Shown here piece after piece: positions 19,960 to 25,866 of a stretch of DNA of 36,662 bases. Below the pieces are notes generated by a model that saw only the letters and a program-made list of their open reading frames with translations, was not told the origin of the DNA and searched no databases. The number at the start of each line of letters is the position of its first letter. The first letter of the stretch is position 1. The position numbers and the translations under genes are program-made. This DNA comes from an uncultured Pseudomonadota bacterium (GTDB lineage Bacteria; Pseudomonadota; Alphaproteobacteria; Rs-D84): NCBI GenBank assembly GCA_947165555.1, contig CAMVAR010000001.1:1-36662 (forward strand), written 5' to 3'.

Positions 19960-20017
19960 CAAAAGTAGCCAGAAAATAGCCATTTTTTAATTTTAACTTT
20001 TGAACTTTTTGTGATAC
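19960..20017 (+). repeat. Copy A of a ~58-bp direct repeat (promoter-like)
   Basis: Copy A reads CAAAAGTAGCCAGAAAATAGCCATTTTTTAATTTTAACTTTTGAACTTTTTGTGATAC. The core TTTTTTAATTTTAACTTT[T/C]GAACTTTTTG is identical to copy B in 33 of 34 positions. TGATACAAT lies just downstream, 13 nt before the ATG of the 318-aa gene. Confidence 0.8.
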
Positions 20018-20027
20018 AATTCCATGT

Positions 20028-20984
20028 ATGAGAATGTTGCAAAAGTGGGGATTTTTTTTACTGGCGATTATTGTGCCGGCACTGACGCATGCCGACGAAG
20101 CGGATTTGGTTGCTGCACTGCAAAACACATATTCCGCATGCGTTGGGATAGATGAAGCTCTTGCAGATTTAAAAAAGATGGCAGGTATAAATACCGCGAT
20201 AACAGGTGTTGGAACTGGACTTGGTGCCGGTGCAACGATTGTTGGTATTGTAAAGGAACAAAAAGACCAATTGGCCGACAAACTTAAACTTGAAAAATTG
20301 CGCACAATCGAAGAACGTCGTATGCAAACTGAAACACCACCGACATCAAACGAAGAACTTGATGCAGCAAAGCGCGAATTTGACAATTTGTGGGGCAAAA
20401 CCACCAACGATAAAAATACAGATTCAGAAATTGAAAAATTAGACAAACAATCAAAAAGTTTGGGTAATTGGCGAACAGGTTTACTTGCCGGGAACACTGT
20501 CACTAATGTTGCCGGTGCAATTATTGCAGGCAAAAACAAAACCGATGGCGACCTGCAAAGCCAAATTGATAACTGCAAGTCCGCAATCGGTGAACTGCGC
20601 CGGGCACGCGCCCGGGCACGCATCGACGGCACCGACACGGGTGAGGCAAACGCTATTATTTCGGCATGTGAAGGTTTTGAAACCGTTGATATATCAAAAA
20701 TAAATACCCGAGCAAAGGGCGCAATGGTTTCCGGCATTGTTGGTGCAACAACGGGACTTACCGGAACAATAACCAGTGGTATTGCAAACAGCGATTCTGT
20801 TCGCAATCAGGGCGAAGGTGGCACACGCACCGATAAAGAAAAAAATCTTAATACCGCATCAAATATTTTGGCGGGCGCATCAACGGTTGCATCGGGTGTT
20901 GCAACGGTATTTAACGCAACACAAATATCGGCAATTAAAAAAGTCGCAAATGTTGCCGCAAAATGTACGGAGGCATTAAAATGA
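20028..20984 (+). CDS. Secreted 318-aa protein with four Gly/Ala/Thr-rich (glycine-zipper-like) hydrophobic segments
   Basis: The signal peptide is MRMLQKWGFFLLAIIVPALTHA|DE. Hydrophobic G/A/T segments lie at about aa 55-76, 148-168, 231-253 and 277-296, separated by charged helical linkers. There is an internal duplication: YSACVGIDEALADLKKMAG...GVGTGLGAGATIVGIV against ISACEGFETVDISKINTRAKG...GIVGATTGLTGTITSGIA. I recognise no family. Confidence 0.8.
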   Translation: MRMLQKWGFFLLAIIVPALTHADEADLVAALQNTYSACVGIDEALADLKKMAGINTAITGVGTGLGAGATIVGIVKEQKDQLADKLKLEKLRTIEERRMQTETPPTSNEELDAAKREFDNLWGKTTNDKNTDSEIEKLDKQSKSLGNWRTGLLAGNTVTNVAGAIIAGKNKTDGDLQSQIDNCKSAIGELRRARARARIDGTDTGEANAIISACEGFETVDISKINTRAKGAMVSGIVGATTGLTGTITSGIANSDSVRNQGEGGTRTDKEKNLNTASNILAGASTVASGVATVFNATQISAIKKVANVAAKCTEALK

Positions 20985-23900
20985 AAAGATTTTTAATCGC
21001 ACTCTTTGCAGTATTTGCCTCTGGTAAAACTTTTGCCGAACCAAATGGTGGTTTTATCCCACAAATTCCACCGATTTATGCGCACCCAGATGTTGTCGAA
21101 TATGCCATTAAAAAATATGTTGTTGCACCATATGACCCAAACAAAGTAACCGCGGCATACGAGCAATATATGAATCAAAATGACGGAACAATCACATTAG
21201 AAAATCTGCAACAAAAGGTTTGTCCCGCCGGTGGTATGGATTATGCACGGTGTAAAGAATTTACAAATGTATTGATGATACCATATTACGACGTATGCGA
21301 TAGTGGCAAGGGAAAATCAGGCGGCAACGAACATTGTGAAAAGAACTTTTTTTATTATTCGGCACCCAAAAATCTGAGTTTTGGAAATGGAACCTATGTC
21401 AGAACCAAAGAAGCAATTGGTCTTGCCCAAGAATACGCATTGGTTAAAGATAAACAAAAGGTTGTTTGTGTATCCACCAAAGGAAATTCCAAAAAGACAG
21501 ATACAATTTGGTGCACCGGTATTGATAAAAAACATTTTTATGAATTCAAATTTAACAATATCAAAGAAACCAAGGATGACCACATAAAACAATCATTACT
21601 TGGTGCGATATGTAAATTACACAATACGCAATACAGTGCCGGCGGTATCGGTGCCGCGACACTTGGAAGCGCCCCGGGTTATTCTTGGCCGGATTCATGT
21701 GAAACCGCGGATAAGTTCATATGTACAAATATAAATAAATCACTTGGACGTTTTTCATACAAAGCAACGATTGGAACAAGTGATGTTCCACCAACTGGTA
21801 AATATTCAACCTGTGTAATTGAAAAGGTTGTGAGTGATATATCGAACTTGCGCAGCGCATATGGTATTGACCCATCAGTTTTCAAAAATATTCAAGCGTT
21901 GGCGGGTGAAGATATAGACAAGAAAATCAAACAATATGTTAAACAGGAATTACAAAAACAAAAAATAACATTTGATGAAAAATCATTTCATTGTGCCGAT
22001 TCAACCAATGTTTTGAACGGTGGTGATGTTTTAACGTGCTATGTAAATAATAAACCGGTTGATTTCTTGTTCAAAGATTTATCTGAATGGAGCGGCGTGA
22101 ACAAACGCGGTGGTACCCAGGCAATGGATTGTATTGTATCGGGCGGAACATATACCGGCAAACGTTGTACAAATTTGAATCAAAAACAGTGCGAAATGTT
22201 GCGGAACGCAAATCTAAAAAGTTGTCCAAGTTGTAATATGGTTCGTTGGGATGCAAAAAATAAAGTTTGCACTTTACCAAGCAGTGCCGCCGCAACCAAT
22301 TTGCAGAAAGATATGAAAGTTGTTGCAATCGTTGGTGGTGCGGTTGCGGGTGCTGCAATCACTATCGCCACTGCTGGCACCGCCGGATTGACTGCCGGTG
22401 GTTATATTATACTTGGTGTTGAAACAACTGGTGCCGGACTTGAATTATGGTCCCAATCAAAAATTGATGGTATTGCAGATGAATTTTTCTTAGAAGCAAA
22501 TAACTGTAATAATGTAAATTGTGCAGCACAATTGATCGAACAATATTTAACCGACCTTGCTGCGATTGACCGCGACCTAACCGCCGACGAAGCGGATGCT
22601 GTTGATAAAGAAATGGCAAGATTGTTTGAATTGATACCAACTGATTCAAATTGGTGGATTAATAATTTAAGGACCGATGATGGTGAATCATTCCTTGAAA
22701 AAGCCGACAATGGTCATTGGACCGCAGCACAAGTATGGCGCGCGATTGGTATAGGCATGCAATTCGTAGGTATCGTATCATCGGTCACTGGTTGGATTAT
22801 AAAGAAAACGCTATTTTTAGAGAAAACTTTAGATAGAACATCCAGAATATTATTAAATAATGCAAGAATCGCAGAGAAAAATATTGTAAAATATGAAAAC
22901 TTATCCGATATAGATAAAGAATTTTATAAACTATGGAAAACATATGCACCAAAGAACCAAACGTTTGAACAATTTAAAGCAATGTCCAATGGCAATTTAG
23001 ATGAGATGAGACAAATGACGAAAGGGTGGCGCGCTCGAAATGAAAGAGATTTTGCTGCGGAAATTGAAATAGCCGATATTAGGGGGAAAATTGGCCAATT
23101 TTATTACAAAAGATGGCTTGAAGGTAAATATAGCCCCACAGATGCAAATACAATAAATGATTTTAAGCGGTTGCGTTATTTGGAAGAGAATCGAGTTGTG
23201 AATTATGCAACTTATGACCAAGAATTTAGTAAAATATCTAAACCGTATGAGCAGGAAATGGAAGATTTGAGCGCTTGGTTTGATCGAGAATTTGATAGAA
23301 TATACGATAATCATGTACAAAATAATTTGCCAGGGAAGTATTCAGAAACAGATGAATATAAGAATTTTATACAACAGTATCGGGAAAAGAGAAAAGATAT
23401 TTCTGGGAGATATCAATATCAAATTGCCGAACAGTTTCCTTTGGAAAATCTTGGAAATGTTGTAAACGAACGAGCAACCGATTTCACGGAAGTAATCAAA
23501 AATAATCCTAACATAGAATCAAACCTAAATGATTTTACTTGGGGGCTTAAAGATGATAATGAACGCCTTGATATCGCACAACAAATTTTGGATGAATATG
23601 CTAGAAAAACTAATACCCCCATTATAAAAGTCGAATTTGGGGATAATATGGTATTTGAAGGAGTATGGAATGGCGAGAAAATACAAATAAACCCAAATTC
23701 AGATTTTTTCAAAAGCCCCAAAGGGATGCTTAATATTCTTGCGCATGAACATGGGCATGCAATAGATGAGTTGGTACCAAATGAAGGGGCTCTTGGTGAA
23801 CAATTTTCGCATTATGCGGAAAAATTATATTCAAATGCTAAAGATGCAGGATATCGTGTTGCATTAACAGAACAAAGTTCATACAAGATAGGTCCAAATG

Positions 23901-24813: not shown

Positions 24814-24909
24814 GAATCTTGGTTGTGCAAGGTGTGCAGTTTTCGAGCCGAATTATTAGAGGTTGGGCGAGAGATTGATATAGCGAAAGAGAAATTAAAC
24901 TTGGCATAT

Positions 24910-25761
24910 TTACATTGATTTAATTTGAATATTTTTAATCAAATGTTCTGCCGCATTTAACGCATTGTCATACGTATCAAATGCAGCACCAATACTATAT
25001 ACTTGAACACATCCAGGCATTTTAATATATTCCACTGGAATTTTATATGGTTCTATGGTTGTAATATTATATGTTCCACGATGAGATTCTTTTATAATAT
25101 ATTTAACTTTTGTTCCTTCAAATGCAGACCGGTCGATATCCGCGTCCAATGGCAAAGTTATAAAGTCTGAAACAGCCAATATTTGTGCCTGAATCTTGTC
25201 TTTTGTAAATTTATATGAATTGTATATTGCCCGTTCCAAAGGTTTGCAATAATAATTAGCGGTTTCTGTAAAGATATTATTAGTTTCTTGGTTTGTGTAT
25301 TTAGGGTTATTCATTGATGCTATTATTGACGACAAAGTATTTGGATATTTTTTTGTTCCAAAGTTATCGGATAAATCCATTGGTGTTATGAATTCAACAT
25401 CAAATTTTTCCGCCGCATCATTTGCGGTTTTTATATCGGTTTTGTATTTGCCGGCGATATATTCCGCACCAACCGCATTCCATAACAACCCAAATGCAGC
25501 ATATTTATTTCCATTTGGACGCACGCGCGCATCTTGTTGATGATGGTCAAATTCACCGCCCCCTATATCAAAAGCCAAACCATCAAAATCTTGTGGAACA
25601 CGCCCAACACGTTGAATTACAGAAACATCAGATATAATTCCAGAAATCTTTAACAATGCTGCAGACAAAACATCGTCTGCATGAAAACGACTAGAATGTG
25701 TCACAACCCCGTTTTTAACAAGATTTTTTAATATTTCTATATTTGTCATACAACTACTCAT
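24910..25761 (-). CDS. MYG1/UPF0160-family metal-dependent hydrolase
   Basis: This is a 283-aa ORF. THSSRFHADDVLSAALL...FDIGGGEFDHHQQ matches the MYG1 DHH-like signature (H..FHaDe..a......DvGg.yDhHQ). The start could be Met1 (25761) or Met5 (25749). Confidence 0.78.
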   Translation of the reverse strand: MSSCMTNIEILKNLVKNGVVTHSSRFHADDVLSAALLKISGIISDVSVIQRVGRVPQDFDGLAFDIGGGEFDHHQQDARVRPNGNKYAAFGLLWNAVGAEYIAGKYKTDIKTANDAAEKFDVEFITPMDLSDNFGTKKYPNTLSSIIASMNNPKYTNQETNNIFTETANYYCKPLERAIYNSYKFTKDKIQAQILAVSDFITLPLDADIDRSAFEGTKVKYIIKESHRGTYNITTIEPYKIPVEYIKMPGCVQVYSIGAAFDTYDNALNAAEHLIKNIQIKSM

Positions 25762-25807
25762 GCTGAAAATGTACTACTTTTTATTAAAATGTCAATATTT
25801 GTTGGCT

Positions 25808-25866
25808 CAAAAGTGGAGAAAAAATGCCACTTTTTTAATTTTAACTTTCGAACTTTTTGCAGATAC
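25808..25866 (+). repeat. Copy B of the ~58-bp direct repeat
   Basis: Copy B reads CAAAAGTGGAGAAAAAATGCCACTTTTTTAATTTTAACTTTCGAACTTTTTGCAGATAC. It is in the same orientation as copy A. It is followed by the hairpin AAAACTTG-N10-CAAGTTTT (25880-25905) rather than by a gene. Confidence 0.8.

Follow-up and report, generated by a model that had tools for sequence, protein, structure and literature searches.

The 36,662-bp contig CAMVAR010000001.1 of assembly GCA_947165555.1, analysed here in its entirety and referred to below as the window, belongs to Candidatus Enterousia, a gut alphaproteobacterium that is uncultured and has a ~0.9-Mb genome (the source assembly, G000, comprises 751 kb and is 79% complete). 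Between lrgA and an intact tRNA-Met(CAT) gene (26186..26262, minus strand), the window carries two direct repeats, copies A and B, that enclose 5.8 kb of DNA and are the subject of this analysis. Read from the tRNA gene outward, the region can be described as an array consisting of a 244-bp insert, a displaced copy of the tRNA-Met 3' end joined to module B, a 1.1-kb cassette with a MYG1-family gene, a degenerate junction (junction X), a block of open reading frames (ORFs) encoding 318, 1058 and 100 amino acids (aa), a truncated module A, a gene for a 116-aa lipoprotein-like protein and finally lrgA. No recombinase was found in the array, as tblastn of the genome's large serine recombinase (LSR) against the whole assembly matched only its own gene, indicating that all units in the window are recombinase-less; the same search led us to reject recombinase remnants adjoining A or B.

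The repeat pair reported in an earlier sequence-only reading of the window was borne out, in position and in shared orientation, by a repeat search, BLAST and gapped alignment. The repeat search identified a 53-nt direct pair (19959-20011 and 25807-25859) with 83% ungapped identity, as that reading had estimated, and BLAST gave 87%; gapped local alignment of 19959-20017 with 25807-25866 scored 81, compared to 23.7 +/- 4.6 (maximum 38) for 200 shuffles. The near-perfect core put earlier at 34 nt amounts to 29 nt (TTTTTTAATTTTAACTTT[T/C]GAACTTTTTG, one mismatch), and a 27-nt core pattern allowing up to 3 mismatches matched only copies A and B in the window and nothing in 100 shuffles. Each copy is a dyad of inverted 10-mers with 29 nt between them. 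Copy A (19959..20007, plus strand) has the form CTTCAAAAGT-N29-ACTTTTGAAC, belongs to the 50-bp class and appears to be a truncated recombinase-tail module; its similarity to B runs on to ~20017, its nhmmer match to the module profile is limited to module positions 2-56, and it consists of the dyad and ~13 nt of spacer with neither a hairpin nor a tRNA-like fragment. Copy B (25805..25853, plus strand), GCTCAAAAGT-N29-ACTTTCGAAC, has two arm mismatches; a T-run comes after its inner hairpin (GTGG/CCAC), which is weak. Next to it lie a conserved spacer (..AGAAAGCAAATAAAAAC) with a hairpin of terminator type at 25880-25905 (together 25854..25912, plus strand) and, at 25913..25941 on the minus strand, a displaced copy of the tRNA-Met 3' end (..AAATCCATCCCCCGCAACCA) that matches the gene at 19 of 20 nt; both the hairpin and the tRNA fragment had been noted previously. 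Judged by its sequence, copy B is a complete recombinase-less module made up of dyad, spacer, terminator-like hairpin and displaced tRNA-Met 3' copy.

A search of the genome and its relatives, proposed in the same reading, indicates that the repeat is not a private pair but a family with at least seven full and three partial copies in the 751-kb assembly. We built a hidden Markov model (HMM) of the module from twelve full modules and searched it against the source assembly, which placed full modules on contig C2 (23553-23670), at B, on C41 (three copies after tRNA-Gln(ctg)) and on C57 after tRNA-Tyr, and partial modules at A (dyad part only), at 24781-24833 (spacer, hairpin and junction) and at the tRNA-Met end. 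The dyad itself is also present on contigs C2, C12 and C41 and has the 50-bp consensus GTTCRAAAGT-N29/30-ACTTTYGAAC. Copies with exact arms occur in 24 of the 60 other genomes of the genus, and a reversed control pattern in none. The recombinase-less unit seen in many of these genomes is organized as a tRNA-like fragment ending in CAACCA, a terminator hairpin, a spacer and the dyad; the arms are exact across dozens of such copies, in contrast to interiors that can be sorted into unrelated classes; in the class of A, B and the C2 copy, an inner hairpin shows compensating changes and a T-run is present. The orientation of the copies with respect to neighbouring genes varies. In one relative (G011) tRNA-Gln(ttg) is followed by four modules with one or two ORFs each. 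The source genome has a second array of its own (C41:3597-6447), in which tRNA-Gln(ctg) is followed by modules at 3655-3778, 4499-4618 and 6296-6411; the first unit holds a histidine-phosphatase-like gene, and the contig ends 36 nt past the third module. To the letter, then, the motif does recur in many other intergenic regions, a result that was to have spoken against an island boundary, but these regions are all tRNA-anchored arrays or contain a tRNA-like fragment, indicating that the repeat is not a generic promoter or repeat element.

The dyad can be traced to the coding tails of LSR genes. The copy on C12 lies within the last ~60 codons of a 544-aa LSR (Resolvase, Recombinase and Zn_ribbon domains) convergent on an intact tRNA-Glu gene, and in autonomous elements generally the dyad occupies the last ~45 codons of an LSR gene convergent on a tRNA gene. 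Homologues of this LSR are patchily distributed (15 of 40 genomes of relatives) at ~30% identity, nearly all of them converging on a tRNA gene (Gln, Arg, Asn, Pro, His, Glu or Val), and their ORFs stop inside the tRNA in antisense, with 81-83 nt separating the dyad and the CCA end. Scanning species-representative genomes yielded 80 loci in the Alphaproteobacteria, Patescibacteria, Elusimicrobia, Bdellovibrionales and other groups, 57 of which have a convergent overlapping tRNA gene and a dyad centre fixed at 106-108 nt from the CCA. Arm sequences are specific to lineages (GTTCGAAAGT, GTTCTGAAGT, GTTCGATAA, GTTCGACA, GTTCGAACTT and GTTCGCAAA), yet symmetric in each. Across LSR lineages 85.8% of arm cells are paired and 7 of 12 pairs show double-sided changes; pairing falls below 46% when the partner is slid along, and the covariation score of 0.31 (0.14 shuffled) was reached by none of 500 shuffles. 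One-sided (G-U) intermediates are absent from the variable arm positions (alignment columns 7-10), and the arms are kept at the nucleotide level even at ~30% protein identity, the encoded amino acids changing with the arm sequence. Symmetric change, lack of G-U intermediates and amino acids that follow the arms together indicate selection on the DNA, making a symmetric DNA site more likely than an RNA stem. The arms do not appear to be a copy of the T-loop of the target tRNA, a candidate we rejected since the T-loop is always GTTCGAA or GTTCGAG whereas the arms vary, with no covariation between the two. The terminator-like hairpin of the LSR tail encodes a conserved K-P-F-D/N motif (AAACCGTTCGAT..ATCGAACGGTT), and three symmetric elements bearing GTTC thereby lie within ~170 bp: this hairpin (GTTC/GAAC), the dyad arms and the tRNA T-loop.

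The position of the crossover is indicated by an empty and an occupied site in two relatives. Genome G050 has an empty tRNA-Gln(ttg) site (..CCCCAACCA|CACTTCGCG), and G004 carries a 4.68-kb LSR element at exactly this point, in which the CCA is directly followed by the LSR tail, whose dyad is unbroken, and the far end (..CGTCAACCA|CACTTCGCG) finishes in ..CAACCA. The comparison places the crossover at the tRNA CCA end, with ~6 nt shared and the dyad 80-130 nt inside the element. The tRNA gene itself is left intact by insertion at its 3' end, as seen both at this site and in the tRNA-Met gene of the window. A GIY-YIG nuclease gene is also found at the tRNA-Gln(ttg) CCA end, upstream of an older dyad, in G050 (C21 locus 1088-1551), G004 (C6 locus 14772-15235) and probably G053, and may be an independent mobile insertion of homing type at the shared spot. 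At the tRNA-Met locus, module B and its tRNA-Met fragment have orthologues in G012, G007 and G057. The G012 module is 85.7% identical over 126 nt, compared to 74-75% for neighbouring genes, and homology does not continue past the outer edge of the dyad: the following 7.2 kb, as far as lrgA, are unrelated to the content of the window. The interval from tRNA-Met to the displaced fragment, only 244 bp long in the source genome, is filled in G057 by a 14.8-kb island whose LSR (535 aa) is intact. This island (C16:68000-87900 locus, ~2860-17640), which looks like a defence-type island, also encodes a 210-aa small serine-recombinase-like ORF (IGYIRVSSNKQ) and a 434-aa ORF.

The 5.8 kb between A and B is probably composite, comprising at least two cassettes with a boundary at 24816/24817. 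The first is a ~1.1-kb cassette (24817-25912) whose cargo is a MYG1/UPF0160-family gene (24910..25761, minus strand; Pfam PF03690) with a promoter-like site, TTGACA-16-TACATT, at 25795-25768, next to B on the opposite strand. Its far end (24817..24909, plus strand) starts with TGGTTG, the antisense of ...CAACCA, and this conserved end of ~90 nt is common to two cassettes of G019. MYG1-family genes are confined to 3 of the 61 genomes examined for the genus. The G019 MYG1 cassette lies in an array beside tRNA-Gln(ctg) and shares 94% nucleotide identity with that of the window, in contrast to the 66-82% that core DNA shows against three further species of the genus; the two units measure 1096 bp (window) and 1089 bp (G019). 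Homology between them starts no more than 2 nt from the TGGTTG junction and a terminator hairpin precedes it in both genomes, which argues for the cassette boundary at 24816/24817 in the window. On the other side of this boundary lies junction X (24781..24816, plus strand), a candidate older module reduced to a spacer remnant and a terminator hairpin at 24796-24813, which matches module positions 65-122 (nhmmer E=0.003) and after which the G019 homology begins directly. Junction X is recognized by this HMM match together with the G019 boundary.

Taken together, A and B are probably end modules of units that were delivered by LSRs and stacked at tRNA-Met. In the process we propose, the LSR gene converges on a tRNA gene and reads ~30 nt into it, and the element inserts exactly at the CCA end, so that on leaving the tRNA one meets, within the LSR tail, first a terminator-like hairpin, then a spacer and lastly the 50-bp dyad, whose centre is 106-108 nt from the CCA. 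Older elements would be displaced outward whenever another one inserts at the CCA, leaving junctions composed of a tRNA-like 3' fragment ending in CAACCA, a hairpin, a spacer and a dyad, and older units would lose the body of the LSR and keep the module. The proposal of the sequence-only reading that the repeats are island boundaries is thus upheld in kind, A and B being recognizable as tRNA-proximal end modules of cassettes; consistent with this, the region beyond B varies between species and the MYG1 cassette recurs at a different tRNA in another species. They are not, however, the matched attL and attR of a single 5.8-kb island, given that crossover takes place at the CCA end, that a further, probable boundary at 24816/24817 lies between them and that the module is found at other tRNA loci.

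Less secure, though quite possible, is that the dyad acts in cis as a DNA-binding site for the LSR and is kept because the cassettes retaining it can still be mobilized in trans, a function suggested by its attP-like geometry, its symmetric lineage-specific arms and its retention in recombinase-less units. A further step, that the dyad (possibly with the GTTC/GAAC hairpin and the tRNA T-loop) is an accessory site required in cis by the LSR, comparable to res sites, within an integron-like system at tRNA 3' ends in many phyla, is speculative and we regard it as rather unlikely. If it were true, a single LSR could capture and shuffle small recombinase-less cassettes bearing only a dyad module and a CAACCA-type end, in the Alphaproteobacteria, Patescibacteria, Elusimicrobia and Bdellovibrionota.

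Several observations weigh against this set of proposals. We know of no report of an LSR that requires accessory sites, and the dyad is intact in the integrated element and hence is not the crossover site. The GIY-YIG cassette sits at a tRNA CCA end with no dyad at its tRNA-proximal end, indicating that the dyad is not needed for every insertion at this position. Sequence support for junction X is weak, its pairwise likeness to A or B not rising above that of shuffles. The MYG1 units of the window and G019 diverge abruptly in the 5' end of the gene and not at a module boundary; the break falls ~20 codons into the gene, so that a breakpoint at the module edge was rejected and ordinary recombination must also shape the arrays. 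On the A side, it is position only that marks the 318/1058-aa gene pair as a putative cassette, and there is no canonical cassette end beside the 318-aa gene, which together with the missing hairpin and tRNA-like fragment of copy A makes this junction irregular.

The dyad could alternatively be the crossover site of the recombinase itself (attP) placed within its coding sequence, in which case every insertion would cut the gene in two, a copy of the tail would stay behind, and A and B could be regarded as scars of the attL/attR type. Its geometry fits, with 50 bp and perfect outer inverted arms, orphan tails are found at cassette boundaries, and interspecies homology ends at the outer edge of the dyad. 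The comparison of G004 with G050 led us to reject this role, as the insertion lies at the CCA end and the element contains the tail in full, its dyad unbroken, and the boundary of the MYG1 cassette is a CCA-type junction in two genomes. Moreover, recombination between the two dyads in G004 would have given the LSR an unrelated, truncated tail, yet the tail is conserved across phyla, and we saw no mosaic of half-sites among the recombinase-less dyads; we therefore consider this explanation improbable. That the sequences are instead neutral relics, the decaying 3' ends of deleted recombinase genes that resemble each other through recent common origin or gene conversion, would agree with the interiors of A, B and the C2 copy, which resemble degraded LSR-tail codons (SKVEQKR..), and with the visible truncation of A and X. 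Decay does not readily account for exact arms in dozens of recombinase-less copies with otherwise unrelated interiors, for an orthologue of B conserved beyond its neighbouring genes, or for LSR-gene arms maintained as nucleotides while amino-acid changes track them, and there is little probability in our estimation that it is the explanation.

Function at the RNA level, as a 3' stem-loop or terminator for transcripts of the recombinase and later of the cargo, or as a small RNA, would also make use of arms that are able to pair, and many recombinase-less copies have an inner hairpin (GGYG..CRCC) with compensating changes and a subsequent T-run; good terminators are present in the modules, and both arm mismatches of B become G-U pairs when read on the minus strand. 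The double-sided changes and missing G-U intermediates in the variable columns of the arms do not fit an RNA stem, a 10-bp stem closing a 30-nt unconstrained loop would be a poor RNA element, the copies occur in both orientations relative to neighbouring genes, and Rfam searches around B and the C2 copy, at the gathering threshold and at permissive E-values, returned only tRNA. An RNA role for the repeat as a whole is consequently unlikely. Very unlikely is the second proposal of the sequence-only reading, a duplicated promoter or operator with A as the working copy for the 318-aa gene and B as an orphan left behind without its gene. The end of copy A does lie 10 nt ahead of the start of this ORF (ATG at 20028), as that reading had it, and the TGnTACAAT-like -10 element described there is present as TGATACAAT at 20012-20020. 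It forms part of a promoter-like site, TTAACT-16-TACAAT with a TG extension (19993..20020, plus strand), which as a consensus match only agrees at 9 of 12 positions, lies 7 nt upstream of the ATG and is made up partly of the dyad 3' arm (TTAACT) and partly of spacer remnant; B has no match on that strand and no downstream gene. The -10 element of A arises from two changes in the module spacer, B having TACTAG there, and promoter-like sites number 3 in the A region versus a shuffled mean of 3.1 and 13 versus 7.5 around B. Since the ancestral form of the family is LSR coding sequence, copies lie in both orientations and only A overlaps a promoter-like site, we could not sustain the duplication of a promoter; other copies come after tRNAs or before terminators, and the region upstream of the homologous pair in G057 lacks the motif. 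Copy A nevertheless appears, from this match, to have been co-opted as the promoter of the 318-aa gene, and we infer that parts of the module would act incidentally as a terminator (B) or as promoter material (A). A terminator scan of the window called hairpins at 24796-24813 (minus strand) and 26141-26185 (bidirectional) and called neither the 25880-25905 hairpin nor the weak inner hairpin of the dyad.

Features of this arrangement are shared with several known systems. The closest LSR analogue is the staphylococcal cassette chromosome (SCC, including SCCmec), in which the LSRs CcrAB insert tandem units at the 3' end of rlmH (orfX), and pseudo-SCC elements without ccr, which have these short sites at their boundaries too, are mobile in trans; the boundary repeats of SCC are the crossover sites. 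Tandem LSR units at the 3' end of a conserved gene and the presence of recombinase-less units are common to both, but the target here is a tRNA gene, and the dyad is embedded in the recombinase gene, for which SCCmec has no counterpart. Phage serine integrases, Bxb1 and phiC31 among them, use attP sites of ~50 bp with outer inverted-repeat arms around a non-symmetric centre, and integration splits these sites. The dyad resembles them in its layout of 10+29/30+10 nt as an imperfect inverted repeat with symmetric, covarying arms, and differs in remaining whole after integration at ~110 bp from the crossover. Integrons employ a tyrosine recombinase that acts on folded single-stranded attC at an attI site. 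Like integron cassettes, the units described here are small, promoter-poor, contain one or two genes, form arrays and carry an imperfect palindrome whose outer arms are conserved and whose centre varies; unlike them, they involve an LSR, are anchored at a tRNA end and have a palindrome of fixed length.

Tycheposons integrate at tRNA genes and displace older elements outward by successive integrations, leaving partial tRNA copies between units and degraded remnants, and a minority carry a large serine recombinase, according to the part of their description that we searched (Hackl et al., bioRxiv 10.1101/2020.12.28.424599). As far as this part of the preprint goes, tRNA anchoring, outward stacking, partial tRNA copies at junctions and persisting remnants are shared with the arrays of Candidatus Enterousia, and the latter differ in that the integrase is always an LSR of one clade overlapping the tRNA end, that crossover occurs at the CCA terminus with ~6 nt shared, and that each unit keeps a 50-bp dyad derived from the integrase coding tail. 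No dyad-like feature was found in the searched part of that preprint, which was the only relevant item in a literature search for tRNA-targeting serine recombinases or the dyad; the search found no description of the latter. Mobile elements are well known to accumulate in stacks at tRNA genes, and the island itself is ordinary. Less ordinary are the strict association of one LSR clade with tRNA 3' ends across several phyla and a mirror-symmetric 50-bp site in the LSR coding tail that survives in cassettes lacking the gene. Were the dyad required in cis, it would explain how single-gene cassettes are exchanged in very small genomes, that of Candidatus Enterousia included, without a recombinase in each cassette, and would add the need for an accessory site to the serine integrases, which are prized as genome-engineering tools for their simple sites. 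In practical terms, the module is an annotation marker of cassette junctions in these genomes.

The remaining features of the window concern the anchor and the cargo of the array. The tRNA-Met gene has a perfect TTGACA-16-TATAAT promoter at 26303-26276. The non-coding insert of 244 bp (25942..26185) that separates the live tRNA from the displaced fragment ends in the bidirectional terminator at 26141-26185 and is free of ORFs; two of its sequence blocks, GGCACAT..ATGTGCC.GCTG.GCGCAAA and CCGTA.CGATTT..CTGCG, are also present in G019, G044 and G072, in G019 at the equivalent position beside tRNA-Gln(ctg), and the insert could represent either a mini-cassette devoid of cargo or a gene for a small RNA. 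The three ORFs of the cargo block overlap or abut (20028..24438, plus strand). The 318-aa and 1058-aa proteins have signal peptides, and the latter belongs to a multi-copy, fast-evolving family of the genus with up to 7 matches per genome. Their gene pair is also found on C16 of G057, where alignment of window positions 20136-24124 with 12240-16498 of the C16 locus gives 83% nucleotide identity over the first 2.9 kb (20136-23033) and 73-75% in two shorter blocks past 23033; the signal-peptide region and the promoter differ, and synteny was rejected as the flanks are unrelated and the upstream motif is lacking. Beyond copy A, a 48-codon ORF (MSCKQDLEKFF..; 19757-19906, minus strand), which falls below the size limit of the ORF list, starts 52 nt from the repeat. 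Further out, lrgB (18163-18848, minus strand) is split into two overlapping ORFs of 153 and 168 aa that match the C- and N-terminal halves of Pfam LrgB and, unless this reflects an assembly error, is a frameshifted gene or a pseudogene.

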